A DNA stretch of 62,309 bases, from positions 1-62,309 of the forward strand of contig JWZX01003208.1 of NCBI GenBank assembly GCA_001275005.1, read 5' to 3'. The notes beneath the pieces are model-generated. The model had not been told where the DNA came from, did no database searches, and was given only the letters and a program-made list of their open reading frames with translations. This document shows, one piece after another, positions 125 to 31,945 of this stretch. This DNA comes from Chrysochromulina tobinii. Its lineage: Eukaryota. A program made the position numbers and the translations under genes. Each line of letters begins with the position of its first letter. Position 1 is the first letter of the stretch.

Positions 125-3016
125 ATGCTGGAGCTGATCGACGCATTCACAAACGACCTGATCCGCGACCCGGTGCTCGCGACCGATGGCCACGTCTACG
201 ATCGCTCCTCGCTCCTCAAGTACTTTGCCGCCCGGAAGTCCGAAGGACTGCCGATTGTCTCGCCTCAGGACCCGGAGCAGCCCATGCGAGAGGAGTTGGG
301 CGAGGCGCCGGCCGACGTGGTTGCGGCGCTGGCGCAGCTGCGCGCGGACGGCGAGCTGATGAGAAGGGCGCGCCAGGCACGATCCGTCACCTTCAAGAGC
401 CTCGAGGCCCTGAAGGTGGTGTTTGATGTGCTGGACCCGCTGTCGGAGCTGCTGGCTGCGACACTGGAGGGTTGGAAGACGCCGGTGGTGATCGTGTTCG
501 GCCAGGAGACGAGCGGCAAGTCGTCGCTGCTCGAACGGCTCGCGATGATGCCGCTGCTGCCGCGCGGCGAGGACACGTGCACGCGGCTGCCCATCCTGCT
601 CAAGCTGCGTCACACAAAGGAGGCGCAGCTGCCGGTGCTGGTGGTGCGCGACAGCGCGACGGGCAAGGAGGAGGTGCGGCGTACAGTGTCGCTCGCGGGC
701 GGGCAGGTGGACGTGCGGCATGAGATGGAGCGCGTGCTCGCTGCCGAGCAGGGCGGCCTCACCTCGGTCAGCATGACGCGCACGATCGAGGTGCACGTGC
801 ACTCGCCGGCGGTGCCGAGCATCGACCTGGTCGACCTGCCCGGGCTGAGGCTGTCGGCGGGCTCGGACGCGGCGGACATGCCGGAGAAGGCAAAGGCCCT
901 GGTCAAGGCGCAGGTCGAGCAGCACAAGGGATCGGCCATTTTCCTCGTGAGCTGCACAGCCTCCACGCCTCCGTCCCAGTCGCTTGGCTTGCAGCTGGTG
1001 GAGGAGCTGGGCCTGCAGCGCGACACGATCGGTGTGGTGACGATGTGCGACAACATCGGGAAGAAGGACATGACGAAGCTGCCGGACCGGCTGAGGCAGA
1101 CGTCGGGCGATGCGTTTCAGCTCGCGCCGCACGGCTTCATCGGCACGATGACGGACCCGATCAAGGATGAGGGTTTGAGCAACGTGCAGCGGCTTGAGAT
1201 GATGGCGACGGCCGAGCGCAAGTGGTTTGCGTCGCAGCCGCTGCTATCGCCGCTATTGTCCGATGGCCTGCTGACGTGCGATGCGCTCGTGGACAAGCTG
1301 AGCAGTGTCTACGCCCGATATCTGCGCAGCACCTGGGCACCACTGACGCTGATCCGCCTCAACGGAGAGCTCATGCGGCTGCAGGCGAAGAGCGACGCGC
1401 TCGGCTTGCCTGAGGCGGTCGAGGCGCCAACCGGCCCGGCCCTCGACGAGCTTCGGGCGGCGGCGTGCCGAGCCGCCGAGGCGGTGCTGGACGAGGCGAT
1501 GGGTGGGGTGGCTGATGAATGCTTTGATAGCATCATCAAGCCGACGGTTTCGAAGCTGGCGAAGAATGGTCGTGGCACGGGGCTAGTCGCGATGCACCTG
1601 GCGATGGTGAAGAGCGCTATGGAGAGCCACCTCAGGTTTGTGAGCCAGGCGAAGCAGGCGTTCGCCGCTGACGCCTCGACTTTCAGGTTGCAGCGATTCC
1701 CCGCGTTTACCGAGGCGATCGTGGCGAAGCTGCAAACACAGGCCTCGCACGTGCGCGGCACGTTTGTGTGGCGCGAGCAGTCGACGGCGGAGCTCGTGCT
1801 CGAGGCGGCGAACGAGGTGACGGACTGGAGGGAGGCCTGTGCGGCCGAGCGCATCGTGATCCGCGAGCAGATGCTCCAGGTGGAGCCGGTGAAGGCAAAG
1901 ACGCTCGAGTTGCTCGAAATCGCCTCGGAGAGCGCTCTCACCACCGAGGCGGTGGAGCGCGCAGTGGCTGAAAAGGACCCAGCGGCGCTGGTGGCCTTGC
2001 TCCAAGCGTGCGCCATCGGTGCGCGGACGCCGATGGCGAGTGGCATCGCCAGTCTCGCCGACGCACCGCCCGCTCAGTCGACGGATCCGATGCGTGTGGC
2101 ACTCGCCGCGGCCGGCGCCCTCCCGCCGCTGGTGGCGATGCTCGGCGATGGTACCGCTGAGGAGCGTGCCGCAGCCGCGGAGGCCTTGGGGAAGCTAGCG
2201 CGCAACGAAGCCAACAAGGCGGCGATGGCGGCGGCGGGCGCCGTTGAGGCGCTCGTGGCGCTCGTGCGCGACGGCGACGCTCAGGGCAAAGCGAACGCAG
2301 CCGGCGCGTTGTGGACTATGGCGGCTGGCGACGTCGCCATCAAGGCGGCGATGGCGGCGGCCGGCTATTCATTGAGGGACGCGAGGGAGGCTGGGTTCAC
2401 CTGCAAGGACGCGAGGGAGGCTGGGTTCACCTGCAAGGACGTGAGGGAGGCTGGGTTCACCTGCTGGGACGCGAAGGCGGCTGGGTTCACCTGCTGGGAC
2501 GCGAAGGCGGCTGGGTTCACCTGCAAGGACGCGAAGGCGGCTGGGTTCACCTGCAAGGACGCGAGGGAGGCTGGCATGCTGTCGACCTGCAAGGACGCGA
2601 GGGATGCTGGGTTCACCGCGCTGAAGGAGGCTGGGTTCACCTGCATGGACGCGAGGTGGGCTGGGTTCAAGGCTGGGAAGGAATGCTATGAGGCCGGCTT
2701 CACCTACGAAGAGGGCAGGGCGGCTGGTTTTCCTTCGCGTGTCAACTTTAATGGCAAACTTCCTAACGCCCCTGATATCACTTTTTATGACGTGCGACCT
2801 GTTCATTGGCCATCTTGTAAGTCCCCCTCCAAGAATTCGAACCCAGGTTGCCCCTTGCCACCGCGCCCCCCTCCGCCTGGCGAGCATCGCCGCGGCGGCC
2901 ACACCGTGTCGCCGCGCGTGCGGCCCGCCCATTCCAAGTCGTTCGTCTTAACCACTCTTCCCTCTCCCGTGTGCGCAGATAATTTTGACTGGGATGGGAA
3001 GTACCTTCGTGATTGA
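125..3016 (+). CDS. U-box + dynamin/Mx-like GTPase + ARM repeats + C-terminal AGF decapeptide repeats; probable intron 2817-2978
   Basis: U-box-like DPVLATDGHVYDRSSL; dynamin motifs GQETSGKS, TCTR, DLPG, TMCD; ARM-like AAGALPPLVAML/AAGAVEALVALV; repeats AREAGFTCKD. GTAAGT...GCAG (162 nt, in-frame) gives spliced end PSYNFDWDGKYLRD*. Confidence 0.85.
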   Translation: MLELIDAFTNDLIRDPVLATDGHVYDRSSLLKYFAARKSEGLPIVSPQDPEQPMREELGEAPADVVAALAQLRADGELMRRARQARSVTFKSLEALKVVFDVLDPLSELLAATLEGWKTPVVIVFGQETSGKSSLLERLAMMPLLPRGEDTCTRLPILLKLRHTKEAQLPVLVVRDSATGKEEVRRTVSLAGGQVDVRHEMERVLAAEQGGLTSVSMTRTIEVHVHSPAVPSIDLVDLPGLRLSAGSDAADMPEKAKALVKAQVEQHKGSAIFLVSCTASTPPSQSLGLQLVEELGLQRDTIGVVTMCDNIGKKDMTKLPDRLRQTSGDAFQLAPHGFIGTMTDPIKDEGLSNVQRLEMMATAERKWFASQPLLSPLLSDGLLTCDALVDKLSSVYARYLRSTWAPLTLIRLNGELMRLQAKSDALGLPEAVEAPTGPALDELRAAACRAAEAVLDEAMGGVADECFDSIIKPTVSKLAKNGRGTGLVAMHLAMVKSAMESHLRFVSQAKQAFAADASTFRLQRFPAFTEAIVAKLQTQASHVRGTFVWREQSTAELVLEAANEVTDWREACAAERIVIREQMLQVEPVKAKTLELLEIASESALTTEAVERAVAEKDPAALVALLQACAIGARTPMASGIASLADAPPAQSTDPMRVALAAAGALPPLVAMLGDGTAEERAAAAEALGKLARNEANKAAMAAAGAVEALVALVRDGDAQGKANAAGALWTMAAGDVAIKAAMAAAGYSLRDAREAGFTCKDAREAGFTCKDVREAGFTCWDAKAAGFTCWDAKAAGFTCKDAKAAGFTCKDAREAGMLSTCKDARDAGFTALKEAGFTCMDARWAGFKAGKECYEAGFTYEEGRAAGFPSRVNFNGKLPNAPDITFYDVRPVHWPSCKSPSKNSNPGCPLPPRPPPPGEHRRGGHTVSPRVRPAHSKSFVLTTLPSPVCADNFDWDGKYLRD
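2375..2730 (+). repeat. Coding 30-nt tandem repeat (AREAGFTCKD-type decapeptide)
   Basis: Unit gcgagggaggctgggttcacctgcaaggac repeated about 10 times with point variants. Confidence 0.95.
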
Positions 3017-3201
3017 AGGGCTTGGTTGATAACCGCGGTGCCGCCCCCACCATGCCGCGACGACCCCAGATAGCAGCCACCATACCAAGGGCGCGCCGGG
3101 CACCTACACCAGCCGGCGTGGAGCCGCCTTCCAGCCGAGATGCAGGGAGGGGAGGGTGGAATGATTGCCGCAGATGTGCAGGGGTTCCTCGAGTGCGTGC
3201 C

Positions 3202-3542
3202 GTAAGCTCTCCGAGAATCGAACTCAGCTCGACCCTCGCCGCGCGCGCCCTCCGCCCTCCCGCGCGCCCCCCCACCCTCCGCCCGGCGAGGCGGCCGCGC
3301 CGTGCCGCCGCCCGTGCCGCCGCACGTGCGGCCCGCGCCCTGCGTGCGGCCTGGGGCGGCGTGGCGAGCCCGCGCTGCCGCGACTCTCACGCCCGCTCTT
3401 GCGCGTGGCGTCCTCGCATGGCGGCGCAGGGAATTTAGACTGGGATGAGAGAAATTTTGGAAGGAATGGATTCACCTATGAAGAGGGCAGGGCGGCTGCC
3501 TTAGGCACTAATCGGCTGCAGGAGCTCAAGCCGCACCATTAA
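3202..3542 (+). other. Second copy of terminal intron (3202-3429) plus potential alternative last exon
   Basis: GTAAGC...GGCGGCGCAG resembles intron 31063-31257; followed by NLDWDERNFGRNGFTYEEGRAAALG...HH*, in phase with the 2817 donor. Confidence 0.6.
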
Positions 3543-3731
3543 TACTACATGTAGGTTAATGACATCTGTTGAGTGTTGTAACTACTACGTCGTGAACATG
3601 TGTTTTCGCCACGTTCTCATCCCGGCCCTGCGCGGCCACCCGTTCGAGCCACTCAGAGCTCGCTGCTTGGGTCGGCCCCGCCGAACGCTGGACTTGTAAA
3701 GCCGTGTGTCTACGCAACGCTTTCGAGTACA

Positions 3732-6700
3732 TCAGACAGCCCCATTCCCGCCCATCCGCTGGTACGCCACCAAGTACTCAGGGTAGATGTAGCTTCCATG
3801 GAAGACAATAAACTCACGGAAGCGTGCGATGCAGCCGCCAGTCTCAGCCACGAGCGAGTGGAAGTGCACGGGCGGCGATGCGCGAGGCACCGCGGCCAGC
3901 TCACGCTTATCGCCCGTGGCAAAGATCGAGCCACCGCCGCCGTCCATGCTTGTTTGGCCATCTTGGGTGCGGACAGAGTGGCCCAGGGAGACGCGGCACA
4001 CGAGAAGGTAGTGGAGCCTGCCAGGGTGGCGCACCTTCACAAACAGCCGCTCGTGCAGCTCCTTGCGTGCGCCGCTCGTATCGTGCGCAACGTCGGTGGT
4101 CACGTATTGGTCATTCTTGCCCACGTCCTCCGCAAAGTACGTGCCGTGGCCAAAGATCCCCCTGCTGAAATGCTCATTGGGCCCGTTACTCAGGATGCTC
4201 AAGAGCATGTCCGGCTTCGTGCCGTGCAGCAGAACCCGCTCGTTGGCCTCAGCATTCATGCCACCAGGGAAGTGGGCGCGGTCCGTCTTGAGAACCAGGC
4301 TGGACAGGGCGGCCCCGTTCCTGCGGAGCCGCGCGAGCTGCTCCTGGATCTGCTGCTGGCCGGATACGTAGCGGTCCCAGAGCTTCGGGTGCTCGAGCCG
4401 CCACGCGCACGCCAGCTCGAGCCGGCTGTAGACTCCGGGCTGGCGGACGTCTTGACCTCTGGAGAGCTGTGTGGGGTCGGTTTGGAGCAGAGACTGCAGA
4501 GTAGCCCATAGGTTCGCATCGTTGCGGCGATCCAGGGCGATCAATGCGAAGCCGTCGTTGGCACGTGCGGTCGTTGCGAGACTGGGCTGCCAGTAGGCAG
4601 GCGGTGCGCGCCGCTCGGCCGCCATCGCACTCATCTTGCTCTGCGCATGCTCCGCCGCCTTCCGAGCCGCATCCGCCTTTGTCGACGCCTCCGCGTGCCG
4701 CCGGCGCTCCTCCTCGAGACGCCGGCGCTCGGCCTCCGACTGGGCCCTCTGCTCACGTGCGGCCCTCTCCTGGTCTCTCAGCCGTTGGTCGGCGGCGCTC
4801 AGCTCAGCCTCGCGGCGCCGGAGCTCCATATCGCGCAGTCGGCACGCCTCCTCGGCCTCCCGCAGCTGGCGACGCTGCTCGGCCGCAGAGCTCTCGAGCG
4901 CGCTGCGATGCCTGCGCTCCTCCTCCTTCATCCTCGTGCGATGCCCGCGCTCCTCCTCCTCCATCCGCACTCGCTCGGCTTCGGCAACGCTCGCAATCTC
5001 GAGCCGCTCCAGATCCGCCGCCTCCCGCGCCTCCTCTGCGAGCGCGCGTGCCGCCGTCGGATCGAGGAAGGGGTGCTGGCTCGCCGACGTGGCGTCGAAC
5101 CTCGCCTCCGGCGCATCCGCGAGCAGCCCTCGGAGCAGCGCCTCCAGGTGGGCGTACTTGGACTCAGACGCCTCGGCGTCGCTCGCGCTCTTGTGCCACG
5201 AGAGCAGCGCACCCGAGGGCGAGAAGCAGAGCGAGCCCTCCCGGCAGGTCGCCTTCAGCACGCACACGCCATACGCAAAGAGGTCCGCCGCGTGCGTGGG
5301 CTTGGGGGCGGGCGCACTGCTGTTCGCGGGCTGAGAGAGCTCGGGGGCGCGGTACTGCTGCGTCCCCAGCACGCTGCTCGGCGCCGCGCTCATGCTCGCG
5401 ATGTCGCGGCTCGTCTCAAAGTCGGCGAGGCACGCGTTCCACACGCCCTCACCCTGCGCCGCCATCAGGACGTTTGGTAGCTTCACGTCGCCGTGCGCGA
5501 AGCCGTGCCCGTGCAGGTGGCGCAGCGCAAGAGCGACGTCGTTCAGCGCCGCCTTGCGCGCCAGGGCGATTGGGCTCTTCTGCAGCAGCCACGCCTGCAT
5601 GTCGCCCGCGTCACAGTGCCTGAGCTGCATGTACGCGACGCGCCCCCCTGCCCTCGAGCTCTCGAAGAGGCACTCCACCTCGGCGATCAGCGGGTGACGC
5701 AGCTCTGACAGGATGCGCACCTCGCGCTGCAGCCTGCGCCAGTCCTCGCTCCGCTGCAGCGTGTACTCCTTGAGCACACTGCGCCTCCCGCCGAAGACGC
5801 CCGTGAACACGTGGTGTAATGTCTCCGGCGGGCCGCTCATGAGCGAGAGCTGCGAGTAATGCGAGAGCTCGCGCTCGACGAGCATGCCGGGGATGGCGAC
5901 GCCATCGACCTCGCACAGGCGCAGCACGGGCTCGGTCGCCAACCACTCTGGCAAGTGGACGAAGGCCATCGCCGAGAGCGCCACGCGCGTGGACCTCAGG
6001 GCGCTCTCGGCGCGCTGAACCTGATCACGCGCCTCGTCGAGCCGTTCGGTGGCCCCGGGCTCTCCCTTCTCGACGGCGGCGTTGGCGTCGATGAAATCGT
6101 TTCTGGCATCCTTCCAGGCCCTGTGCAGGGCGTGCAGGCTCTCGAGCCCAGCTTGCGCCCCCTCTACCTTTTGGAGCTCCGGAAGCTCCACTCGCGATCG
6201 ATCGACCTCGCGCATGCACCGGCTGATGAGGGGCAGTGCCTCCTCGCGCAGCGCGCCCAAGCGCCGCCTCGGCTCCGCCCCGAGATGTTCCTCCAACTTT
6301 TCCAAGGCCATCGCCTCATTCGGCAAGTCTCTCGCCAATTCTGCACACTCACTCGTGGCGTGCTCGATCAGCGCCTGGAGCCTCTGCATGAGCTCAAGCC
6401 GCGCCGTGTCGCGCCTGGCCACAGCGTCGCCCCTGGCCACAGCGTCGCGCCGGCCCTCGTCCTCCGCGAGTTCCAGCGGCGACGCCTCGAGCGAGAAGCA
6501 AGCGCGCACGTGCTGCTGCGCGCTCGCGAGACGGCCACGGGCCGACGTGACGTGCTCGAGCATCTCAGCGCATACGTGAAAGGCGTCCAGCTCTCCCGGC
6601 TTGATCGGCAGCGACGTCTGCCTCGCCACGGGTAGCGCGGCTGGTGAGGCACGCACGTGGCTGAACTCGACGGGGTCGATCTCTGTGGAGGCAGCCGTAG

Positions 6701-7536
6701 CGTTCACCAGAACTTCCGCACGGCCGTACAATTTGGCCTGGCGCGCACGGGCGATCTCGAGCTGGCCGAAGAGTTCGTCGAGACCGGCGTCGCCGGCTTC
6801 AAGCTCAACGGCCGTCACTGTGCGAGAGTGGACGGTGGCGCCCCCGCCGCCGAGGATGGCATCCACGTGCAGCTCGATGCTCGCGTTGGGCGGCACGAAG
6901 CCCGTCGTCGGGACGAAGGTGCACTCCCCTTCGCAGACCACCTTGAACGCCATATGCGACTGCAGACTGCGGGGACAAGCGGTCACGCACGCGGGAGAGG
7001 GTGCTTACTGCCAGAGATGGTGGGAGTCGAGGGGCATCGTGCGCAGGAAATGCGAACCTTGGATTCGTGATGCGCAGATCGCATGAAGGAGCAGCGACAA
7101 TGCGCAACGATTCCGGAGGATAAGCACCGAGCTCGATGCTTGCCATCGGAAGCGGGGCTTGCTCTTCAGGCTTGGACTCTATCGGATAAAGCTCGATGCG
7201 TCCACTTGAGGCAAACAATGAGGCCATGGCCCTCGCGTCGAATAGATCGCATGCAGCAGAGTCGATCTTCACCGCCTCATGCAATGCGATCGGACGATTC
7301 AGCAAGATGGCCGGAGCCTCAGCAGTAGCTCCTCCCTTGTTTTTGATGACAATCTCGATGCTCCCACCAGGAGCCACTGCGCCGGCTAATGGAATCACGG
7401 TTGTTTGATCGTCGCTCTGGAGGACGAGGAAGGCGTAAAGCTGCTCCGTGGGGTTCTCGAGGCGCACGCTTGCCTCGCCTTCGCAAAAGTGAAGCGCGCT
7501 TCTGTCGCGAACGCCGACGCGGATCGCCGCCATCAT
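3732..7536 (-). CDS. 2x MSP domain + coiled coil + protein kinase + coiled coil + PARP catalytic domain; intron 6967-7057
   Basis: MSP-like LENPTEQLYAF...GAVAPGGSIEI and spliced ITNPSLQSHMAFKV...GFVPPNASIEL; kinase VLKEY, HGDVKLPN, ADFE, YRAPE; PARP LHGT, FGHGTYFAED..K..QY, REFIVF..IYPEYLV. Confidence 0.85.
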
Positions 7537-7896
7537 ATTCGCGACAGGCTCGGAAGAAATACGTGTGAACTGGCTGTGAATAAAACGGACGAGCAATGAT
7601 TCAAAAGTGACAACTCTCATTCCGTCATGAAATTGTCTGACACAGTCACAGATACTCGCGTCTGCAAGCCGGAAGGAAGTCAGGAGCCCGCTGAAGCTGT
7701 GTAGCAGAAAAGTGCTACAGTACAAGCAGCCACATGTGGTGAGTCTCTCCCGGGGGCACTTCCTCATCCGGGCGGTTACTAATTGCGTGGACAACAGGCC
7801 AAGAATTTTTCAAGAGGTTCGTCAGTGGGAGAAGGGGGGTGCAGGTGTGCAACCACAACGCGTCAATTGGTGGACTTGTCGGGCACTTGGTGGACG

Positions 7897-8460
7897 ATGC
7901 GCTCGTTGTCGCTCCTGGCGCTCGTCGCGCTCGTTCGCGGCAATAATGTGCACCGATACGTGCACATGAATGACCTTGAAAAGCTGGAGGCGGAGATCCT
8001 CGGCAAGAGATCCACGGAGCTCAACGCCGTCGAGGCTCACACCGGCCAAACGCCGCTGTTTAAGGCGGTCTCCGAGAAGAAAACCACGGCCGTGAAAATG
8101 CTCCTCAAAGCGGGCGCAGACGCCACCATCGGTGACAAGGATGGCTATACCGTGTGCCACGAAGCCGCCAGGCTGGGTCACCACGAGATCTTGTTGATGC
8201 TCCTTGAGAAAGGACTTCCATGCACGACCGATTATCACACTGATGGGTTCACGCCGCTGCACCGCGCGTGCACGGGGAAGTCGGAGGCACACACGGCCGC
8301 CGTGCGTGCGCTGATTAAGGCGGGCGCGCCAGCCGACCAGAAGGCCAAGAACGGCATGTCTCCTATGGAGCTGGCGGTGGACAATGCGGCGACGAGGGGC
8401 CTGCTCAAAACTCGGCTCAAGAAGGTCGAAATGTCCAAGCAGTACAAGGCGGAGCTCTAA
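7897..8460 (+). CDS. Ankyrin-repeat protein with signal peptide and KDEL-like C-terminus
   Basis: MRSLSLLALVALVRG leader; GQTPLFKA, GYTVCHEA, GFTPLHRA, GMSPMELA ankyrin motifs; ends KAEL. Confidence 0.85.
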   Translation: MRSLSLLALVALVRGNNVHRYVHMNDLEKLEAEILGKRSTELNAVEAHTGQTPLFKAVSEKKTTAVKMLLKAGADATIGDKDGYTVCHEAARLGHHEILLMLLEKGLPCTTDYHTDGFTPLHRACTGKSEAHTAAVRALIKAGAPADQKAKNGMSPMELAVDNAATRGLLKTRLKKVEMSKQYKAEL

Positions 8461-9530
8461 GCGTCGGCCCATCGGTGATCACGCCAAGGACCATGGCTGC
8501 GACGGGGGCAGGGAACCCTTTTAGCACACGCGATGGGCACATGCGGCAGGCCCACACGCATTTTCAATCCCCATTTAATACCCCCCTATCTGCTCACATT
8601 CCCGGAGCGGTCAGGCTACTTTCAGGCTACCCTTGGCGAGGGTCGCAGTTGTGAGTATCTAAGGAAAAGAAAACGCTGAACGCTGAAACCTGATTCGTGC
8701 AACGCTGAATCGTGAATGCTGAACGCTGAATGCATACTCATCTTGATGTGTGTGCACACTCTCCTTGTACGAGTTCCTTACTCCCACGCCGACATCCCCT
8801 TCAAATTCCCCCACCGCAATTCAGGGGGTCCTGCCAATGTGTAGGTAGCTTGGTAAGTTACAAAGTTCTCTCTCCTTGTACGAGTTGACCGCACCACCAT
8901 GCCGCACCACTCCTCCAACATTCCGGCATCGAGAGTACCGGTCGCGAGATGTGGCCGGTGCGTAACGGGTTCTTAAGGTATCGACGTCTTGTTCGTACGA
9001 CGACGACGTGACATTCTCTTTCACGTATTTGTGGTTCACTGCCAGATAAGCCGGTCAAGGCGCCACCGGAGTCCGTACCCCCAAATAGTGAATCAGTAGT
9101 GAATGCGGCGGCGGATTAGTGACTCAATTAGGAACAGTCAAGATAATTCGGGAAAGAGGTTTGGCTCGCCCTCCGTACGTCGTGTTCGTTCCTATAGGCG
9201 AGAGCCAAAACGCGGTGCCTATCACGAACATTTTTCCCCTTGAGATGAGTGAGTTAGTAAGTTATTGAGACACTCAGACACACCGTGCTGGAACAATACG
9301 GGATATACACATACGGGTCGAGATATCCACTAAGGCACATAACTCACTCACTCTACACTCACACTCACTCACTCACCCACCCTTGAGATGCCTACTATGT
9401 ATTCTCATCTTCGAATAGCCGCAACTTTCTCAAAACGGAAATTCAGCCGCGTTCTCGCGACGCATCTGCGACCTCCGAGAGCGGGCTCAGGCTTCGGCCC
9501 CACTAATTGGGTGGATCCCGCCGCATAAAG

Positions 9531-10793: not shown

Positions 10794-11502
10794 ACACCAA
10801 GGGCACTTCAGCAGCAGCAGCAGTGGCCGCAGGAGAAGCAGCAGGCACAGGCGGCAGAGTGTGTACGCGATCTCGCAAGAGGACGAGAGCGATTGCGAGT
10901 CGCTGCATGGAAATGAGAGAGAGAGAGAGGGGAGGGGGGGGGATTCCATCGAATGGGATGGACAATGGCGCCCCTGCAAGCCCCAGCGAGAACGCACAGC
11001 TGACGCACATGATGCCATGAACCGAGAACCCAGCCGCATGTTCCCTCGAGGTCGCTGACTCGTCAGTCGCGCGCGGCCGCCCAGGGGGTCTTGGTGTCTT
11101 GCCTCGCACTCCACGCTCCAGATGCGTATCTGCTCAGTATCTCGTATCTACTATCACTTGAAACCATCTTTGGTGAAACATGTGAGAGAGTTTTCCATGG
11201 AGGCCCAGAGGTTGAGCATCAGCGGCGTTTTTTCATTTTTCATCTGAGAAGTGTCAGAAGACGAGATGAGAATTGAGATGGCGTCGCCAGGATTCTGCCA
11301 GGAATATTTTTTCAAGAATCCGTTACCTCCTCATCTCTCATCTCTCTTCCGCTTGCAACCCGCGGAGGAGGCTGTGAGTCAAGTGTGTGAGTCGATTTAT
11401 AAACTTTGCGATGAAACTACCGGTACCGAAACGTGAGAAACGGTCTCGGGACTCCGAGCTCGCGTGTAAATCCCTGTCGCATCACTCCGCTCTTTTGCCA
11501 AC

Positions 11503-12318: not shown

Positions 12319-12337
12319 GCCCTGCGCGCTTGCTTGC

Positions 12338-16262: not shown

Positions 16263-16304
<42 letters not shown>

Positions 16305-17880: not shown

Positions 17881-17928
<48 letters not shown>

Positions 17929-19843: not shown

Positions 19844-20187
19844 GGGGCGCCCATCACGGCGCCATGCCGGAGAGGAGCACGAGGTCTGGAGGAGCACCCG
19901 GTTTGGGGCGCTGGGCTTGACTTGACTTGACGTGACTCGCGGCGCACCCAGCCCCAAGCGGCGCACTTGTCCGACCACAAGCGACAAGAAGGTACTAGGG
20001 CTCTGCCACTGAGCGGATGTGAGGTGTGGCGGGCTGGCGGTGGATAGGGAACAGACTCTCGCGTCAGGTGAGCGATGGGTAGACAGCGGCCCGTTGGCCG
20101 GTGCGACGTTTCAAAAACATAACAAACTTCTCGCGACCGCCGACGGCTCGAGCACGCCGCGCTCGACCTCGTCTGGATACGCCCATA

Positions 20188-22649
20188 ATGGCGGAGCCGT
20201 GTCCCATTGGGACCCTGTGCCCACGGCGTGCATCTGCTACACTGATGCCTAATCGTGTCTTTGAAAGCCGTCGTGCTGCCAGGCGAGCGCTGCAGCGCAA
20301 AGCAGCGCTGCAGAGCGGTGCAGCGCCCAATTACACTCCCAGGACCGGTCTGCATCTGGACCCGCATGCGCTGGCGCGTCAGCAGTTGGAGGCGCACGTG
20401 GAATCCACGGCAGCCGCCGCCGTGAGCAGCTTGAGGGCGGCACTCGCGCAAGGGACTGCAAGGCATGCTGCTGCCTCCCAGCCTCCCGATGGGCTGCGCG
20501 AGGCTCTCAGCCAAGACCCTGCGGTGGACGTGGACGAGGCCACGGCGGTGTGGGCGACCGTCTGGCGGCAGGAGGCGCGCCTGAGCGCGGGCGGGCTGAC
20601 TCGACAGGCCAAGCGAGGATGGACTCCGGACGGGCGGTTCCCGAGCGCCTCAGACACCGGCTTTGCGACGCTCTGTGAGCGCTTCGGCCTCGAGGCGCAG
20701 GCGCGGCGGCAGAAGGCGTGGGTGGCCGGCACGGCCCGCCCACGGCGAGTGCTGGCGCTGGCGAATCCGACGGCCCATGAGGGGCTCGCGTGGTGGGTCG
20801 CTCGGGTGGCGGCGGGCATGCTCTGGGTGGCCGGCCGTGACAATCACACCGCCCTCACGATCGGGTACTCGGCGCACGACGTCGAGGATGTACTCAACGG
20901 AGCGATCAGGCCGCGCGGACTCGGCGGCGACCTCGCCAGGGCCATGCGACCTCCCGAGGCGTCATCGGCCTCCCTTGACTGGACGCTCGAGGGCGGCGGC
21001 GCGGCGCTGCTCGCCGGCTGCCACGCGCGCACACGAACGGAGACATGCACCCTGCTACGCGATCGGGTGGACGGCGCCGAGAATCTCGAGCTATCTCGGG
21101 AGCAAGCTCGGCACGGAGGCATCAACATGCTGCTCGCCCGCAACCTGTTCAACATCGGCAGGTGCAGCCGCGAAGGGGTCCGCTTCCTCCGCGCCGCATA
21201 CGGCGACCGTTGGGACCAGTCCCGCGCCGTCCTGAGCGCTCGCGCCAACGCGTCCTCGCCGCCTCCTTCGCTCGAGAAGCGCTTGCGCTCGTCGTTTGCG
21301 CTCGCGGCGGCTTGCTCTCTCCAAGCGAGCCTCGGGCCCGCCCCGTCACTGCACCTCTACGTGGCGAACAATCTCGAGCAATCTCGCGGGGGCTCCCACT
21401 CGGCCCCCCTCAGCACTGCCGTCCACCCTTCCTATGGAGCGATTCGAACGGCCCTGCGCGATGCCGCGACGCTCTCGATTGGCATCTACGTGCGCACGCT
21501 CGCGTCCGAGATCCCCGGAGGCTCAGACTCGGAGGCTCGTCGCCGCTTGGGCTTCAGGCACTGGCCCGCGGCGGAACGCTCCGATGACCTTCGGATGGCC
21601 TCTAGACCTCGGATTGTCTGCCTCATCAGTCCGATGACCTTCCGATGACCTTCGGATGACCTCTGATTGTCTGCCTCATCAGTCCGATGACCTTCGGATG
21701 GCCTCTGATGACCTCTGATTGTCTGCCTCATCAGTCCGATGACCTTCGGATGGCCTCTGATGACCTCTGATTGTCTGCCTCATCAGTCCGATGACCTTCA
21801 GATGGCCTATTTGTCGGATGGCCTCTGTTGACCTCTGATTGTCTGCCTCATCAGGCACTGGCCCTCGGCGGAACGCTCCCATTACCTTGGGATTGCGGCG
21901 TGCGCTCTCGCTCTTGAGACGAGGTGGGCTGCAGGCCTCGAGCGCGGATGGCGGCTGATTGCGCCTGATTGCGCCTGATTGCGCCTTGAGCTCATCAGCC
22001 CGGATCTCCCGCTGAGTGATCGATCGTGATGAACAGTCATTGACAGTGAGTGCGCCTCAATTGCGCCTGATTGCGGAGCAGGTGGGCGCCGGGGTTCGAG
22101 AACGTCGCGTGGTTCGTCGCGTCCGATTCTCCGAGCATCGTGAAGCAGCTCGTGATGGACTTTGACGAAACCCTCGGTGTGAACGGAACGCGCCCCCTCA
22201 CCGGTCGGCGCGCCGTGCTGCACACAGGCGCGGGGGGGCTCCACACACGTTTCGATTTAGATTGGGCGGACCCTACCTGGACGGCGCTCCGCACGGCGCG
22301 CAGCACGCCTGCGGCGGCCGGTGCGCGCCCGGCGACGGCTGGCAGTGTCAACGGCAGCGAGGTGCACGCTCTGCGAACTCGGGCACTCGTCGAAGGGTCG
22401 GCCGATTGGCTGCTCCTCTCCGAGGTGGACACGGCGGTCATCGGGACGATCCAGGACGGGAGTGGCGGGTTCACCTTTGGCACGACGGCGCTGCTGCGCG
22501 GCCTGCGCCTCCGAGGAGTTCGCGCCGCACCCTCATGGAACGACCTCGTGAACGCGGCCAATGCGAGGGATGCGCAGGCCATTGCGCAGCGTTGTGTTCG
22601 GAATGAAGAGGCTCGGATCGTGCCAGCGACGAAGTGTCGCGCTCGCTGA
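20188..22649 (+). CDS. Putative fucosyltransferase-like (GT-B) protein; introns 21558-21854 (GC-AG) and 21924-22081
   Basis: Splicing joins the ORFs in frame via a 69-nt exon; IGIYVR, WFVASDS, DWLLLS, FTFG resemble alpha-1,2/1,6-fucosyltransferase motifs I-III. Confidence 0.55.
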
Positions 22650-22848
22650 GCGTCGATGTTTATGTGACGCGAGAATGCGCCATACATGTATGAACTTGTG
22701 TTCGAGCGTTCGTGTAGCCGCAATGGAAGCGCGCCGTGCCGATACCGCAGGTGAGTTTGTGAGCGCGGTGAGACCGGGACGAAACTGACTGATGATCGGC
22801 TGAGAATCCGGGTCCTGCATCATGAAACGACAATTTCTGCGCGACTGA

Positions 22849-25800
22849 ATGGCGACCTCTGCGCGGCGACCAGCCCGGGAACACCATCTGACGCCAGAGA
22901 CGCTGCAGAAAACGCCGTTCACGCCGCTCGGCCGTTGCCCGATTGGCACGCCGACCACCCAGATCGCCACCAAGATCGCTGCTCATCTGCCGATCAGCGC
23001 TTCGGCCACCGAGTCGCTGGTCGAGGATTGCGATGGCGCCTGCCGGTCGCTGCAAAGCACGCTCGCTGGGTTGGCTCTGACGGTGAACGCTCTGCCGCCA
23101 TTATTTTCGATGCCGCCATTGTTTCCGATGCTCTCCGTGCCCACTGCCGGGGCCCACAGCCTCGAGCCGCCAGCACCGCTCCCAGATTTTGTGGGTGCTC
23201 CATCGGCGTGCCGCCGGTCGCCTGTGCCGCTCTCGGAACTGTTGGACCTGCAGATGCGTGGCAGCAAGGTGAAGGCTGCCGAGACGAGCGAGCTGCTCGC
23301 CGAGGTGGAGCGCGAATGGCGCGAGCTCGAGCACGAGATTCAGGAGGTGCGCGACGAGCGAGCCGACACAGCTAACTCCCGCCGCCAGGCAAAGGCGCTG
23401 CGGCAGTCGTTCCGCAAGTGGCACGCGACGGTTCAGCGGTACCAGCGCGCCGCCATGGCCACGTGCCGCGCAATGCGCAGGCTCTTTGACAAATGGCGCT
23501 GCACCGCAGGCAGCCTGCGGCGGCTGATCGCGCTTGCACAGCACATCGTGCGCCCTCGGCTCCGGCGCGGCTACCTTAGGCTGCTCACGCACCACGCCGA
23601 GCGCCGTCGTGAGCATCGGCTGCTGAGCGCTTCCGTCGCGCGCTTTCGTCGCCGAATGCATGCCGAGTGGCGCACTTGGGCATCCGCGGCCGTAGCACGG
23701 TGCGAGGCTCACGCCACGATGCGGCTCGCTGTGCGTGCGCTCACGACACACCGTCGGGCGGTTGGGTGGCGCAGGTGGCGCACGGCCGGCGAGGCGATCA
23801 CCGTCGCGAGGGCGCGGCTCGGCGCGTCGCTCGCGACGATGCGCCGTCGCGCGCGCGCGGCTGCGTGGTGTGAATGGACACACTACGCTCTCGAGCGTGC
23901 CGGGGCCCTCGAGATTCGTCAATGGTGCGCCCGTCGGCTTTGCACGCGCGAGAAGGCGCTGGCGTGGGCGCGCTGGGTAGCGCTCGCAGCGGCATGGGTG
24001 CAGCGCGTCGAGATGGTCTTTCAGTGCGTTGCGCGCATGCGCCAGGAGCAGTTGACCATCGGATGGTTCACGTGGGCATTCAAAAGCCGTGAGCTCCGGG
24101 CCTCGCTCGAGGCCATCCACGACGCGTGCGACGCCCTCGTCCACAACCAACGCCGCCGCGCGTTCGACCATTGGAGGGAGCGCGTGGAGGAGCGTGCCGC
24201 GGCAGCAGAGCACGCGCGCGCCGTGATGAGCATGCTCTCTTCACAGGGCAGAGCGTTGCGCGCCGCTCTGTGGCGATGGGCGGCTGAGCATGCATCGATA
24301 CTCGAGCTGCAACGGTTTGCGCTTCGGTTACTCGACGCGAAGCTCGCGGCGGCGTGGCGCGTCTGGTCAGGGCGGAGTGCGCAGCTGCAGCTTGCCGCAA
24401 CGGCCGCGTGTCAGCAGCGACTCGCCGAGCTAGGCGTCGCTTTACGCACCTGGATTGCAGCTTTGGACGACGCCGACGCGGCGCGGCAGCAGCTCGCGGA
24501 TGCCGTGAGCACGATGCAAGCCCTCGAAGTGGCCATCGCCTTTCGCACCTGGTTCGCGATCGTTGACGCCGCACGCGCGCAGCTCGTTGCCACCGTGCGC
24601 GCGTGGTCGCCCGACGGCCGCGCGATGCGTCGAGTGTTCAACTCATGGGCACACGCAGCAGATGGTCATCGCCAGCTGCTCGCGGCGGCGGTGCGCCTGC
24701 TCGCCGCCAACCTTCTCAAGGCATTCAACGGCTGGACGGCTGCGGCGACCGAGCGGCAGCGGCTCTGGCATACGGCGGGGCGGCATCTCTCGAACGCGAG
24801 CGTGCGGCGCGGGCTCCATTCATGGCGAACGTTCACAGCCGAGCGGCAGGCGCTGGTGCAGCAGGCTGCCAGATGCCTGGCGTCGATGAAGCAGTCGAGC
24901 ATGCGCGCGAGCCTGAACACGTGGATGTCGTATGCCGAGGCGCACGCCGAGGCGTCGCGCGTGCTGGCCGGCGCTTTGAGCTCGCTTCAGCTTGCGGGCC
25001 GTGCGATGCGCAGGGCGTTCAACTGCTGGTGCGTTGATTGCAACTCGCTGCAGTCCATGCAGCGCGCGACAGCTGCGCTGCGGTTGCGCGAGGTGCGTGT
25101 CGCGTTCAGCATTTGGCACGAGCATGTGTGTGGCGACGGCGAGCGCAACGCTGCCATGCGGCGCGCGGTGGCGTCGATGATGCAGTCGAGCATGTGCGCG
25201 AGCCTGAACACGTGGATGTCGTATGCCGAGGCGCACGCGGAGGCGTCGCGCGTGCTGGCCGGCGCTTTGAGCTCGCTTCAGCTTGCGGGCCGTGCGAAGC
25301 GACATGCAATGCGCAGATGGTGGGCCCGGACCAACGTGGCCCGGACCGACCACGTGGCCCGGACCGACCACGTGGCCCGGACCGACCACGTGGCCCGGAC
25401 CGACCACGTGGCCCGGACCGACGTGGCCCTTTGCGTGCGCAGCGTGGCGCAGGGCTTTCGTCTCGCGGGCAGACGGCGCGCGATGACGAGCTGGATGGCT
25501 CATGCGAGCGAGGCAGCTCGGCGGCGGGCGGCGGCACTTGGCTTGCGCCTCGCGGGGCAGCGGGTGGCGCTCATGACGGCGCTCAGGACTTGGGTCGGTG
25601 TGGCCGAAGCCGCCGCCGAGGCGAGATTGCACCTCGAGGCCGTTGAGCTCCACTGGCTCCCGCTCAAGGTGCTCGTCTCGGCGCGGGGGCGTGCGCTGCG
25701 TGCCGCCTTTGGGGCGTGGAGTGACAATCGTCTACGCACCTTCCGCGCCGCGCGCGCCGTGGGAGTTAGGCTTGAGCGCCGTTGGATCGTTGGTGCGTGG

Positions 25801-28363
25801 AAGAGCTGGCAGGCGCTGTTTCGGGTGCGTCGGCGCGAGGCGACGTCGGCAAGGCATGCGGCGACGCTCTTCCACGCTCGCGCGTGGCGCCAATGGCGTG
25901 CATTCGACCTCCGTCAGCTCCAGCAGCAGGACCAGCTCAGCTGCGCGTGCAATCGCATCCAGGCCTTCCTCCGGCTCGTCAAGGGAGGGTGCGCTATGGT
26001 CGCCTGGAAGGCCTTCACCGCCGCCCGGCACGTCGAGCAGCTCGACAGCAGCCGCGCCTACTGGCGATCGGGGATTCGTCAAAAGGCGATCGCCTTCAGC
26101 GCCTGGCGCTCGTGTGCAGAGGCCGGCGTGCTCGTGGGAATCGTCGTGGGCACGGCCCTCGAGCGCAAGGCTTATGCTCAGATCGCGCGCACTTTCACCA
26201 CGTGGCAATCGATCGCCGCGTTCGGACTCATGATCAGCGCCGCCGAGGAACTCTTCGAGGTTCGCGCGAGCTCGCGTGCGTGGCGCGTGTGGGCGGGAGC
26301 CGCGCGCGTGGCGGCGCTCGAAGATGCCTTCGACACCCGCCCACGCTCGTCGCTCCCGCCCAGCTTTGATCTGGTCGTGCAGCGAGCATGTGGGCGCTCC
26401 CAAAGTTACCAGGTCGCATGCGGATGGCGCCGTTGGGTTCGCCATACGTACCTGCTCGAGCTCTCTGCCCTACCGGTCGCGCAGCTCGTCGCATCGCCGC
26501 GTGGGCTGGTACGGCGGCGATTGCTGCGCCGCGCTCTCCAGGCTTGGCGTCACGGCGCGCGTAGGCCGCTCAGAACGGCGCTCCAACGGCCCCAGCAGGG
26601 GAGTCCAATCCGCCATCGGGCGCCGTCGGGCGCCGTGTCGGGCTCGTCCACCCCGCCGTCCAGCCGTCTTGTGCAGCCGCAGCCGCTCAGCCCTCTCGAG
26701 CAGGCACAGGAGAGGCTTCGGTTGCTCTCCCAGCCCTCCCAGCCACCATACCCTGCGCAGCCCCGTCCGCCCCTCAGCCCTGACCACTCCACTCCACTCC
26801 ACTGGACGGGCCAGGCGCAGCCCCCCTTTCCCAGTCAGCCCCCCAGCCCTCTCGCCGCAGCACAGGAGCGGCTTCGGCTGGCGCGTACCGGTACCGCCAT
26901 CGCCGCATCCACCTCCGCCGCCTCCTCCTCCCCCCCCCCTCGACGCCGCTGCCGCCGCTCTCGCCTCTGAGGTCTCCTCCCCCGCCTCTGCCCCGTCCTC
27001 CCTCGCCTCCTCCTTCTCCTCCTCCGCCGCCTCCTCCCCCCCCGCCGCCGCCGCTTCTGCCACCTCCTCCCTCGCCGCCACTGCCGCCACCGCCGCCTCT
27101 GCCGCCTCGGCTCACCGAGCGCGAGGGCTGTGGGAAGGCGCTGGTGTGGCCGCCGCCGCCGCCGCCTCCCATGCCGCTGCCGCACCCGCGCCCGTCACCG
27201 CCGCCGCGCCTGTCGCCTTCGCTTCTGCCGCTACCGCGCCCGAGCCCACCGCCGCCACCCCCCCTGCCCCCCCTGCCCCCCCTGCCCCCCCTACTCCCCC
27301 TGCTCCCCCTGCTCCCACTGCCGCCCTATGGGAGCGATGGGAGCGGCCGGTGAGCACTCGCGAGGAGGAACTCCGGCGGCAGCGGGAGGAGGGCGAGCGC
27401 CGTCGTCTCGAGGCACAGCGTACCGAGGAAGAGCGCCGAAGGAAGGCTGAGGAGGAGGAGCGGGAGCGGCGCAAGCAGGTGCAAAAGGCGCGCTCGCTCT
27501 CGTTTGAGCGCAAGCGGAGGAAGAAGCAGGAGGAGGAGGAGCGCAAGGTTCGTGACGAGGTGGCGGCCAGGGAGGGGCTCGCGCGTAAGTGGCATGAGGA
27601 GGCTGGAATGAAGGGAGCCGGGGCAGATGGACGCATGCAGGCGAGCCTTGAGGCAGCGGGGGTCTCCATTGGTGTCTCGGTCTCTGAGCGCTCGGCCGCC
27701 GCCAACGCCGCCGCGCTCAACGAGCTCAAGGAGCGTGGCAAGGGTGCATCTCTCATTCGTCAAGAGGTTCGTCAAGACGTGGATGCATCTCTCATTCGTC
27801 AAGAGGTTCGTCAAGACGAGGATGCATCTCTCATTCGAGATCTCGATGCAGAGCCGGGGGCCTCGCAGCTCAAATCTCCGGAGCTCAAATCTCCGGAGCT
27901 CAAATCTCTGGAGCGCAAATCTCCGGAGCTCATCCAGCAACATTCACGCGAGATGGTCGTCGACTGGCCGGCTGCGCGTGGCGATACCGAGCATCAAATC
28001 TCGGTGAGCAAGATGATCAAGACGCTCAATCGGGAGATCGCCATCTCCCCAACGGTCGCTGTTGCCTCGCCCGCGGCCGTCGGCATCCGCTCGACCGCCC
28101 TGTCCCAGCGGCCCGAGATGCTGGAGCGCCGTCACGAGCGCTTGCAGGCGCAGAAGGACCAGCAGCAGCAGGGGCAGCAGCAGGGGCAGCAGCAGGGGCA
28201 GCACCCGAAGCAGCAGCCGAAGCAGCAGCCGAAGCAGCCGGGGCACCAGGGGCAGCAGCAGGGGCAGCAGCAGCCGAAGCAGCAGGGGGGGCAGTCGGAA
28301 GCCTCGTTAAATGAGAGGGCCGCAGCACTTCGGGCGCGGCTCGGGCTCGCTCGGACGCCGTGA
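22849..28363 (+). CDS. Sfi1-like Trp-repeat helical protein with low-complexity C-terminus; frame change near C10 run 26930-26939
   Basis: Many R/K..F..W repeats (RRAFDHW, RRVFNSW, LKAFNGW) typical of centrin-binding Sfi1 repeats; removing one C joins the two long ORFs. Start codon uncertain. Confidence 0.6.
25322..25428 (+). repeat. 18-nt coding repeat (ARTDHV)n
   Basis: gcccggaccgaccacgtg about 6 times. Confidence 0.95.
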
Positions 28364-28589
28364 CATATCGTCCGCGTACGTGAACGGGAGGCTGGTAGCA
28401 AAAGCCAAGGTGACGAGAGCGGTGTCACACGATCGCTCGCAGTCGTACTAAGTAGTCAGTGATTCAGGCCCTGACTCTGCGCGAGGGGAGGGGCGCGGCT
28501 GGGGGAAGCAGATTGTCGTTTACGAGCATGAGAACGACGTGAGTGTGAATAAATAAATCTCCGAAGAAACTTGCAGTCGACGCTCGCAG

Positions 28590-31292
28590 ATGGTGTGCAT
28601 GCGCCGCGCCAGCCGCAGAGCGAGCGAGCGAGCGCAGCGCGCGCGAGCTCCTTGCCGACGCCGCGATCCATTTGCCTAGACCTCATGGTTCCATCGCTCT
28701 GCCAGCGCCACTCTGCCAATCTTGACCTGCCCATCTTCTGCCGCCTTCGCAGCCGGGCTGGGACTGGGGCTTCCTGAATGACAAGTATGACTTTGTCATC
28801 GACGTGTCCACCGGTCAGAAAATCCTCGTGGACAAGACGACCCCCAAGTATAAGCTGGATGCGTCGGGTAACATCTTCAAGGGGCCGCCAATCACGGACA
28901 CCCAAACGAAAGAGTGGACCACAGCCGGATGGGTCGGCTCGCTCGACTTTGCTTCTCTTGTCGTCGCCGCGCTGGAGCCGGCGGTGCCCGCGGGCTGCAA
29001 GGCGCTGGAGTACTTTCGCGAGACAGCCAGCCGCGACGAGCTGGACAGCCGCCTCCGCGCGGCCCAGCTCGCTGGTTTCAGCGACCTTGTGTGGGCGGCG
29101 GTCGAGAGGCTGCGCACCGAGCGCACCGCCGCCGAGGTGCAGGAAAAGTTCCTGACGGATGGCATGGGCCTGCTCGAGTACAGCGACCTGAGCACCTTCT
29201 TTGGTGGCCTCGAGGCCAAGGTCGGCGCTCCGAATCCCAAGATTGTGGATGCGATGGCCGCGGAGCATACGGAGCGCGACGACTCGAATGTCGAACTCGT
29301 CTCGAGCAACCACCATATAAAGACCACCTCCGCGATTGAGTGGCGCTTCGTCGTCGAGCCCGACCGCCCGCCTCCCGAGGGCTGGCCTGCCGAAGCGAAG
29401 CTGCTCGCTGCCAAGTTCCGCGCACCGATGCCGATCGCCGATATGGAGCTGCGGCTCACCGAGCGGAACGCGCGGCTGCGAAAGATCAAGGAGCCGTCAT
29501 TGATCCTCGCGGAGGGCTTCGGAGCACGGCTGTACACTGGGCCTCTGTTCACCAAGGTAGGATTGCCCACCGCCCGCACGACCCCTTTTCCACACAACCC
29601 TGCATTTTCCTCAGTGGCTGAGCGCTGCCCTGAAGCTTTGTGGTTTGGTTCGACGCTCTCTCTCTTCCCACACAGTACAATGGCGTCTTGCGCGGCATCG
29701 ATAGCAGCGTGCCGTTTCTCCGAGCTCAGTTCGAGATATTGTGCTTGGGCAACAAGTACACCACGACGCTGCATGCGATCAACTCGGCGATAGTCAAGCT
29801 GAGCAAGCTCACAGCGGCGACCAAGGTGTATCGCGGCTTGAGTGGCATGGGGCTGCCCGATGCGTTTTGGCGGGCCAACGAGTTTGGCGTGCGTGGAGGG
29901 ATCGAGGCCGCGTTCATGTCGACGACCACCGACCGCAAGGTGGCGATGGACTATGCATCGTCCTCGGGGGCCGCCGGCTCGGGCATCGTCTTCGAGGTCC
30001 TGCAGGGCATGATCAATCGCGGCGCCGACATCACCTTCCTCTCCATGTACCCGCACGAGCAAGAGGTCTTGTTTGCGCCTCTGACGGGGCTCGAGGTGCA
30101 CTCGATGCGCGTGGAGGACGCGGTGCTCGTCGTGAGCGTCGGCCTGTCCATCAACCTCACCGCCCTCACGATTGAGCAGGTGATCGGCAAGCGGCGCAAG
30201 CTGCTGGGCGACATGGCAGCCGGGGTGTGCCTCGAAGTGCGAGGCAAGCTCGGGTCGGCAATCGGTCCGCTGTCTGCGACCCTTCTCGATCGCGAGCTGC
30301 AGGCGGTCGCACTGAAGGAGTCGCCCGACTATTACAATGAAGATACGAACTTCAAGAAGGCGGTCGATGGCGTGCTGGCCGCGAAGCAGGTCGCGCTGTC
30401 GGGGGGTGGCGAGAGGCTTGCATTGTGGGGCCGGCGGCTGACCGCCGATGATTCGCGCCGAGTCGCCCAGCTGCGAGAAGCAGGTGCAAAGTCGTGGGAA
30501 CTGCGTGCGGCGGGCAAGGGCGGCTTTTCGGTGGCGGCGTTGCTACAGGGTGGCTACGAGGTGGCCAGTCTCGTTCGGGGTGATGCTGCTTGGGTTGCAG
30601 CAAGTGACAAAGAGCTCAAGGCGGCCGGGTTCGACGCGGCGGCCTTGATGGCAGCGGGAGCGACTGTTGCGGAGCTGAGGCGTGCAGGCTTTTCAGGCAA
30701 GGACGCGAGAGAGGCCGGCTTTTCATGCAAGCAGGCGAGAGAGGCCGGGATGCTGTCAACATGCAAGGACGCGAAGGAGGCTGGCTTTTCATGCAAGGAA
30801 GTACGGGAGGCTTGCTTTTCATGCAAGGACGCGAGGGAGGCCAGCTTTTCATGCAAGGACGCGAGAGAGGCCGGCTATTCAATCAAGCAGGCGAGGGAAG
30901 CCGGCTTTTCGTGCAAGCAGACAAGGGAGGCCGGCATGCTGTCGACCTGCAAGGACGCGAGGGAGGCTGGGTTCAAACCGAAGGAGTGCATGCAGGCCGG
31001 CTTCACATACGAAGAGGGCACGGCGGCTGGTTTCCGTGGTTCTTATCATTTTTGGCACAAATGTAAGCGCTCGCTGAGGATCGAACTCAGACTGCCCCTT
31101 GCCACCGTCCCCCTCCGCCTGGCGAGGCGGGTCGCGGCGGCCGCGCCGTGCTGCCCGCGGTGCGGCCCGCGGTGCCCTGCGTGCGGCCCGCCGGCGTGGC
31201 GAGCCCGCGCTGCCGACTCTCGCCCCCTCATGCTGGCGTCCTCGCGTGGCGGCGCAGATAATCTTGATTGGGATGGGACGAGACTTGGTTGA
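28590..31292 (+). CDS. Mono-ADP-ribosyltransferase (R-S-E class) with C-terminal AGF decapeptide repeats; probable introns 28593-28752, 29557-29675, 31063-31257
   Basis: RLYTGPLFTK|YNGVLRG, KVYRGL, FMSTT, EQEVLF (R, STT, ExE); repeats AREAGFSCKD; spliced end KYNLDWDGTRLG*. The ATG micro-exon start is tentative. Confidence 0.85.
30610..31035 (+). repeat. Coding 30-nt tandem repeat (AREAGFSCKD-type decapeptide)
   Basis: gcgagggaggccggcttttcatgcaaggac-like units, same family as 2375-2730. Confidence 0.95.
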
Positions 31293-31945
31293 TGCCGCCT
31301 GCCCGCGGGACAGCCCTGTCGTGCCGCGATCCCAAGTGTATCATCCTCTATGCTACGGGCACCTACCAGCCGACGTTGAGCCGCCTTCCAGCCGAGATGC
31401 AGGGGGTTGATTGTCAGCCCCATACGAGAATCGAACTCACGCGCGCGCCCTCCCGGCGAGGCGGCGACACCACGCTCGCGCCGTTTGCATGCGGCCCGAC
31501 GGCATGCTTGGCGAGCCCGCGCTGCCGAGTCACGCCCGCTTGTGCGCGTGGCGTCCTCGGTCCTCGCTGGCACAGAACATGTGTTTCTCTCGGCTCCACC
31601 TCCGTACCGCCCTATGTCTGTGAATGTGTTGCAAAACGGCCTGTAAGAACGCTTCACAGTATAAAGGCGAGGCCTTTCTCCTTTGCACTTACGGTCTTAT
31701 CGTCATTCTCATATTCGGCTCTTTGTTTTTAAATCAAAAATGATCTCGTCCCGCGTGTAACGTTTGGGTCCTATCAATAGGGTTCTATAATCTATATAGC
31801 CGTTAGTTAGCCGTTTTCCAACATGAACGCTTTCGTTTTACCAACCCGGCGCGGACTGCGCGCACCCGCGCAGGCGGTGATCCCACGAGATCCCACGAGG
31901 CACCTGCGGCCCGGTGGGAGTGCCAACTCGCTGCGTGGGTGTCCC

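Follow-up and report, generated by a model that had tools for sequence, protein, structure and literature searches.

Two unrelated genes end in the same C-terminal cassette

Contig JWZX01003208.1 of the haptophyte Chrysochromulina tobinii (assembly GCA_001275005.1, positions 1 to 62,309, hereafter the window; eukaryotic DNA, 64% GC) raises the question of why two genes with unrelated N-termini, one encoding a dynamin GTPase with ARM repeats (gene 1) and one an ADP-ribosyltransferase (ART; gene 2), end in the same C-terminal cassette, and what that cassette might do. An initial annotation had proposed a portable sensor of decapeptide repeats, recently shuffled between the two effector enzymes. 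We find that the cassette stands behind about ten different N-termini in Chrysochromulina, and that its most variable part is a tail between the cap and the last intron. Neither this tail nor a second intron-like copy behind each gene had been annotated. The features of gene 1 are as follows (aa, amino acids; GC3, GC content at third codon positions).

125-3016 (+): gene 1, with a U-box-like start, dynamin GTPase, ARM repeats and cassette
488-1045 (+): Dynamin_N domain (PF00350, E 8e-19)
2084-2323 (+): ARM/HEAT repeats (PF00514, E 1e-9)
2342-2368 (+): fusion point, about 20 nt of microhomology between an ARM unit and the cassette start of TIR and PARP-like paralogs
2360-2659 (+): decapeptide array (PF25296), 10 units, including a 12-aa unit (2570-2605) and an 8-aa unit (2606-2629)
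2660-2731 (+): conserved cap, the last two modified repeats
2732-2816 (+): hypervariable aromatic-rich tail, 28 aa, 46% GC, GC3 0.36
2817-2978 (+): phase-1 intron, 94-95% identical to TIR and PARP-like paralogs
2979-3016 (+): last exon, YNFDWDG to the stop
3017-3429 (+): shared 3′ flank, including a second paralogous intron-like element (3202-3429)
3430-3542 (+): exon-like piece that has another DWD and cap motif and is in frame with the donor at 2817

Those of gene 2 are as follows.

28590-31292 (+): gene 2, ADP-ribosyltransferase and cassette
29748-30122 (+): ART domain with R, STT and ExE motifs in place (PF01129, E 3e-7)
30684-30965 (+): decapeptide array, 9 units (12-aa units at 30744 and 30930), with degenerate units from 30624
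30966-31034 (+): conserved cap
31035-31062 (+): short tail, 9 aa, 36% GC, the same in two lake relatives
31063-31257 (+): phase-1 intron, 79% identical to the gene 1 intron
31258-31292 (+): last exon, YNLDWDG to the stop
31293-31575 (+): shared 3′ flank and decayed second intron-like element (31425-31575)

Both genes match PF25296 well above its cut-off of 45 bits (105 and 134 bits; E 1e-30 and 2e-39). Tandem Repeats Finder places arrays of period 30 at 2377-2669 (9.8 copies) and 30687-30967 (9.0 copies), which align with each other at E 1e-42 (blastn), and the genes share exact identities of 32 nt (2573/30933) and 27 nt (3121/31378). Upstream of the cassette, no similarity between the N-termini is found at E 10 (blastp). 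The cap, the phase-1 intron with its GTAAG start (2817-2978; 31063-31257) and the last exon with its YNxDWDG motif are as originally described, and so is the odd unit common to both genes, except that it spans 12 aa (36 nt) rather than 11. Gene 1 had been called a U-box-dynamin-ARM gene; the dynamin and ARM parts stand, while the U-box remains below the Pfam cut-off (20.1 vs 21.4 bits). Its GTPase has intact G1 and G3 motifs and an atypical G4 (TMCD). The gene 2 ART scores 30.4 bits against a PF01129 cut-off of 22.3, and its R, STT and ExE motifs align with those of HopU1 (E 0.003).

The predicted products are 909 aa for gene 1, if its last intron is spliced (exons 125-2816 and 2979-3016), and 742 aa for gene 2, with inferred introns at 28593-28752, 29557-29675 and 31063-31257. 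Because the last introns of both genes (162 and 195 nt) are stop-free multiples of three, the window alone is no proof that they are introns. In paralogs and alleles the homologous intron breaks the frame or contains stops, and matched intron-less and intron-containing forms exist in three subfamilies (P0155, P0157, P0158, P0160 and P0165 vs P0004; P0425 and P0426 vs P0423 and P0424; P0445 vs P0443 and P0444), the short intron-less contigs presumably being transcripts. The last introns are thus supported by relatives, not by spliced forms of either gene itself. The piece at 3430-3542 is a possible alternative last exon of gene 1; similarity of the 3′ flank to the TIR paralog L005 stops at 3430, and the candidate C-terminus is absent from L004 and L005.

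The recent swap between the two genes that had been suggested does not hold. Their introns are 79% and their 3′ untranslated regions (UTRs) 75% identical, but gene 1 is 94-95% (intron) and 91-97% (UTR) identical to the TIR and PARP-like copies, so the window pair represents an older split. Judging from these identities, it is gene 1 and the TIR and PARP-like paralogs that share a recent exchange.

The cassette is attached to about ten kinds of N-terminus

Relatives were collected by three homolog searches, one profile search, two cluster look-ups and one metagenome scan; each search gave its best 120 to 150 matches, and 15 of the 51 members of the gene-2 cluster were covered. At least 128 of the 445 collected proteins bear the cap, many of them alleles or fragments. 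A source name is attached to a minority of these, and all such names are Chrysochromulina (C. tobinii and C. parva). In line with the portability originally proposed, the unit of repeats, cap, tail, intron and last exon follows about ten different N-termini, among them TIR and another class of ART, and none of the copies seen sits on a core housekeeping enzyme.

Dynamin: P0007, P0190
R-S-E ART: P0168
PARP-like ART: L012, P0178 (Pfam E 0.002-0.03, below cut-off)
TIR_2, with or without WW: P0001, P0002, P0004
HET-like: P0003, P0207, P0229
U-box: P0186, P0192
Ankyrin: P0167, P0212
Pentapeptide: P0209, P0222, P0251
Coiled coil: P0169, P0173, P0200, P0376 (from sequence and AlphaFold2 model)
M48 peptidase: L003 (broken copy)

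TIR_2 scores are above cut-off in P0001, P0132 and P0206 and below it in P0002 and P0004, and the HET-like assignment follows a sequence motif. Two sets of copies are broken. L004, L012 and L014 (cassette on the minus strand, about 5900-7900) carry a PARP-like ART copy with two frameshifts; L003 (2400-2728) carries the M48 copy with a recombinant-looking intron and a much-altered last exon containing a stop, and the UTR behind it is 94% identical to that of gene 1.

The repeats are also found with no cap behind them, both in DotG/IcmE (103 of 120 matches listed also carry TrbI, PF03743) and in other proteins, including a Haptolina TIR protein. In place of the tail, an AbfB sugar-binding domain (E 4e-20) follows the decapeptide repeats of P0193, and an unassigned small domain those of P0208. 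Four large cap-less proteins (P0008, P0010, P0011 and P0098) combine EF-hands, a weak XK-related membrane segment and decapeptide repeats scoring above 100 bits; they form a separate repeat family. No third decapeptide array was found elsewhere in the window (blastn). A viral origin of the cassette is unsupported: among viral contigs the intron start has no exact match and the cap-tail profile no relative, and BFVD gave no match at E 0.001. PADLOC returned nothing relevant.

The tail between cap and intron is hypervariable

Tails and repeat units were analyzed in 95 cap-bearing proteins among 382. These contain 55 distinct tails, of which 48 could be parsed (8 to 30 aa; P0311 is doubtful), while three are out of phase and four unplaced. 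With locus L004 also out of phase, the frame is kept, in phase 1 or spliced, in 48 cases against 4. Ten proteins with the same intron read-through have a mean identity of 86% in the cap and 96% in the read-through, compared with 25% (5 to 52%) in the tail. At the DNA level, the three pairs formed by gene 1, L005 and L004 are 87-93% identical in the cap, 61-66% with gaps in the tail, 91-95% in the intron, 63-78% in the last exon and 91-97% in the UTR, and the borders of divergence at the tail edges are sharp.

The variation is held within a framework: tails start with P-S, frequently contain a hairpin, carry a Trp near the end (within the final six residues in 43 of 48 parsed tails) and are followed by the N-x-D-W-x-G exon. 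W, Y, F and N are enriched and K, E and A depleted, with W, Y and F together making up 20% of tail residues vs 4.5% in the two gene bodies. Four-fold degenerate sites end in T in 30 of 50 cases in tails (five tails, not independent) vs 53 of 656 in gene bodies; the exon end ahead of another gene 2 donor shows no such bias (2/17).

Staggered joints point to ectopic recombination

The limits of similarity differ from gene to gene. The PARP-like gene resembles the TIR-WW gene L005 from L005 position 3766 to 6776, and gene 1 does so from 5021 (window 2334) to 6633 (window 3430); in the HET-like and U-box proteins the joints lie at yet other points. The gene 1 joint falls inside the approximately 20 nt common to the ARM unit and the cassette start. 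Such staggered joints argue for ectopic recombination and not for an element with fixed ends, and we reject a transposable element or fixed mobile cassette because both the 5′ and the 3′ limits vary. Targets of diversity-generating retroelements have a reverse transcriptase nearby and an invariant template repeat; no reverse transcriptase was present among the 31 + 16 proteins scanned, and neither tail is copied elsewhere in the window. An origin of the intron from a tRNA, a short interspersed nuclear element or a primer-binding site is unsupported (no Rfam match at E 10 in 2700-3600; no ARAGORN gene in the window or 10 loci). In protein P0190 a dynamin body with 95% identity is joined to another tail and five repeats, and TIR paralogs at about 80% identity have unrelated tails.

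The repeats are near-monotonous and predicted to form a solenoid

The 159 repeat units vary by 0 to 2.1 bits per position, mostly through K/R, D/E and E/A swaps, with an occasional Trp or Gln at position 6. Arrays change mainly in unit number, which differs between assemblies as had been anticipated, although short-read assembly artifacts are possible. Variants in unit count were seen in 1 of 10 members for gene 1 (11 vs 10 units), 1 of 13 for gene 2 (3 vs 9), 1 of 6 for TIR-WW, 1 of 10 for the HET-like cluster and 0 of 12 in one TIR cluster. The coiled-coil family ranges from 5 to 10 units, and the PARP-like pseudogene has 11, 16 and 20 units in three assemblies (L004, L012 and L014).

AlphaFold2 models of two spliced paralogs (P0158 and P0376) predict that the repeats form an alpha-solenoid of six-residue helices, which the tail caps with a beta-hairpin and a short helix leading into the DWDG turn. 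Predicted local distance difference test (pLDDT) values of cap and tail are 72-84 in P0158 and 94-98 in P0376 (mean of the latter model, 87), and the TIR part of P0158 is unreliable (pLDDT <50). Foldseek against the PDB gave no match for P0158 at E 0.001, the linker alone having weak Tudor-like matches. In VIA-align the list for P0376 was filled by its N-terminal helix, so that solenoid and tail were barely tested; in the ESM Atlas the cap-tail had no usable match and a 0.76 lead concerned the HET-like part only. Given this weak coverage of solenoid and tail, we do not claim a novel fold.

Does the tail recognize something foreign?

For a cassette with this architecture, this range of N-termini, staggered joints and a fast-diverging tail, we lean toward the hypothesis that the variable tail binds a foreign or non-self ligand and so switches on the attached effector, in a defense setting. 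Ectopic recombination, aided by repeats and microhomology, would carry the module onto new N-termini, and diversifying selection after each duplication would alter the tail. The solenoid would act as a spacer or oligomerization scaffold, and a ligand at the tail would cluster or release the effector domain (dynamin, ART, TIR or HET-like) to counter viruses or other intruders. The genus Chrysochromulina hosts a giant virus as well as virophages (PMC6459981, excerpt).

Several observations weigh against this hypothesis. In about half of the classes of N-terminus, namely U-box, ankyrin, pentapeptide, coiled coil and M48, the attached domain is no classical effector; the HET-like class has a weak Pfam match only (E 0.24, on a cluster member); and the Mx-like nature of the gene 1 GTPase, suggested by its nearest solved structures (Mx1, E 3e-19, 72 bits; other dynamins at most 59 bits), comes from a ranking of best hits. 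Some copies are broken (L004/L012/L014 and L003), and many tails come from short contigs in which loci are not separable from alleles. Selection on the protein does not account for the preference of the tail for codons ending in T. Within loci the tail is stable, being identical in 10 of 10 full-length members of the gene-1 cluster, which may stem from few cultures, as well as in gene 2 and its two lake relatives, so neither window locus shows signs of a current arms race. Minor tail changes do occur in some alleles (P0392-394 and P0170). Ongoing hypermutation at the window loci, which we also considered, is not seen.

Both the adaptor-like N-termini and the conservation of tails within loci would fit a targeting or assembly tag, which docks each enzyme on its own partner, membrane or organelle, or aims it at prey or competitors of a mixotroph; so would an interchangeable end piece such as the AbfB domain of P0193. 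We consider such a tag unlikely, because partner docking seldom calls for dozens of unrelated aromatic tails to arise while an intron diverges by 5%, and inspection by eye shows no evident signal peptide-like start in either window gene.

The chimeras might instead be a near-neutral by-product, with arrays driving ectopic recombination that puts a ready 3′ end onto any gene and a T-rich tail that mutates fast. Staggered joints, microhomology, broken copies and the strand-biased T at four-fold sites are all in keeping with this, and in the disabled copies L003 and L004 the last exon is much altered even though their UTRs are 91-94% identical. Neutrality is nevertheless distinctly unlikely in our judgment, given the retention of frame (48 vs 4), the conserved Trp and N-x-D-W-x-G, the confident predicted fold and, in relatives of gene 2, a tail (27/28) and last exon (35/35) better conserved than the UTR (174/189). 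A dedicated local mechanism, such as templated conversion or targeted mutagenesis, that diversifies the tip would explain why divergence has sharp borders at splice sites, why codons ending in T are strand-biased and why disabled copies have altered last exons; the anticipatory immune repertoire that this would give a unicellular alga, with a portable solenoid-and-tip receptor recombined onto a range of effectors, strikes us as quite improbable. Finally, it is very improbable that the array is the sensor, as first proposed, with the number and order of units setting specificity as in the WD40/TPR arrays of fungal NOD-like receptors (NLRs): unit number does vary in several clusters and position 6 is sometimes Trp or Gln, but the units are near-monotonous while the variation lies in the tail, the count does not vary in one TIR cluster, differences elsewhere may be artifacts of short-read assembly and the widest spread occurs in a frameshifted copy.

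Gene neighborhood

Tail to tail with gene 1 lies a gene that combines a protein kinase with a PARP catalytic domain (3732-7004, minus strand; Pfam E 1e-23 and 7e-13), a further conflict-type enzyme next to a family member. An ankyrin gene follows at 7783-8460, and its 74%-identical paralog stands directly upstream of gene 1 in L007 (9398-9827) and L008, so that related ankyrin genes occur on both sides of the block of gene 1 and kinase-PARP gene. Directly behind gene 2 is a 2H phosphoesterase/2′-5′ RNA ligase-like frame (31946-32767, minus strand; E 7e-4, below the Pfam cut-off). Farther along are an M8 peptidase of the leishmanolysin type joined to a Hint module (46195-47964, minus strand; E 2e-23 and 9e-18) and, in a region without long frames, an array of 13 copies of a 22-nt unit (49958-50690) with related 29-, 31- and 52-nt arrays.

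Relation to known systems

The comparisons in this section draw on excerpts of the papers cited. The resemblance to DotG/IcmE of Legionella-type type IVB secretion systems, noted initially, is real, since the repeats of both belong to PF25296. DotG has a TrbI domain (PF03743; 10.1101/312009), which both window genes lack, and none of the DotG-type matches listed has the cap; the DotG repeats have been modeled as a beta-helix stalk (10.1101/312009), in contrast to the alpha-solenoid that AlphaFold2 predicts for Chrysochromulina.

Podospora NLRs whose repeats have high internal conservation likewise join TIR or HET-like, cell-death-type N-termini to near-identical C-terminal repeats that are exchanged between genes (PMC13449251). 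NACHT or NB-ARC domains are present there and absent here, and here the variation is in the terminal tail rather than in the units. NACHT and NB-ARC gave no Pfam match in the proteins scanned, and among the 128 cap-bearing proteins the Walker A motif of the dynamin is the only one, so the family lacks the STAND nucleoside triphosphatase (NTPase) of the NLR class with which it had been compared. The ROCO-leucine-rich repeat (LRR) and NB-ARC-TPR proteins of Ectocarpus are, similarly, an algal candidate immune family with NTPase and repeats (as in gene 1), fast turnover and a diversifying ligand-binding part, putative in our case (PMC3341825); they have one repeat per exon and are exon-shuffled, whereas the decapeptide array is contained in a single exon and it is the complete 3′ end that is transferred between unrelated effectors. 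In lamprey variable lymphocyte receptors (VLRs), too, a repeat solenoid is closed by a C-terminal cap, and a variable insert there binds antigen (PMC3308329). VLRs are extracellular, somatically assembled LRR proteins; the cassette is a non-homologous decapeptide module without evidence of somatic assembly. Mx-like lineages occur in haptophytes (PMC11789081), and the gene 1 GTPase is nearest to human Mx1, but in gene 1 ARM repeats and the cassette follow the GTPase and G4 deviates. By analogy, then, the cassette family would work like NLRs and brown-algal receptors and is in shape like VLRs, yet it lacks the defining features of each.

We did not find the family or its variable tip described in the literature searched, subscription papers being outside its scope. 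The main text of the C. tobin genome paper contains none of the terms 'ribosyl', 'TIR', 'dynamin' and 'virus'; its supplements may annotate these genes. The parts are known, and the family and variable tip are apparently new.

Implications

Giant viruses control haptophytes, which are important primary producers. As far as the literature was searched, no pathogen receptor family is established for these algae. C. tobinii is a freshwater alga, and because alga and viruses are in culture, recognition by the tail can be tested directly. If it is true, PF25296 would gain a role outside secretion systems, and the cap and tail would provide a scaffold of 40 to 60 residues that tolerates a free loop. 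Haptophytes would then possess an NTPase-free receptor design, consisting of effector, decapeptide solenoid and variable cap, that is independent of NLRs and VLRs.

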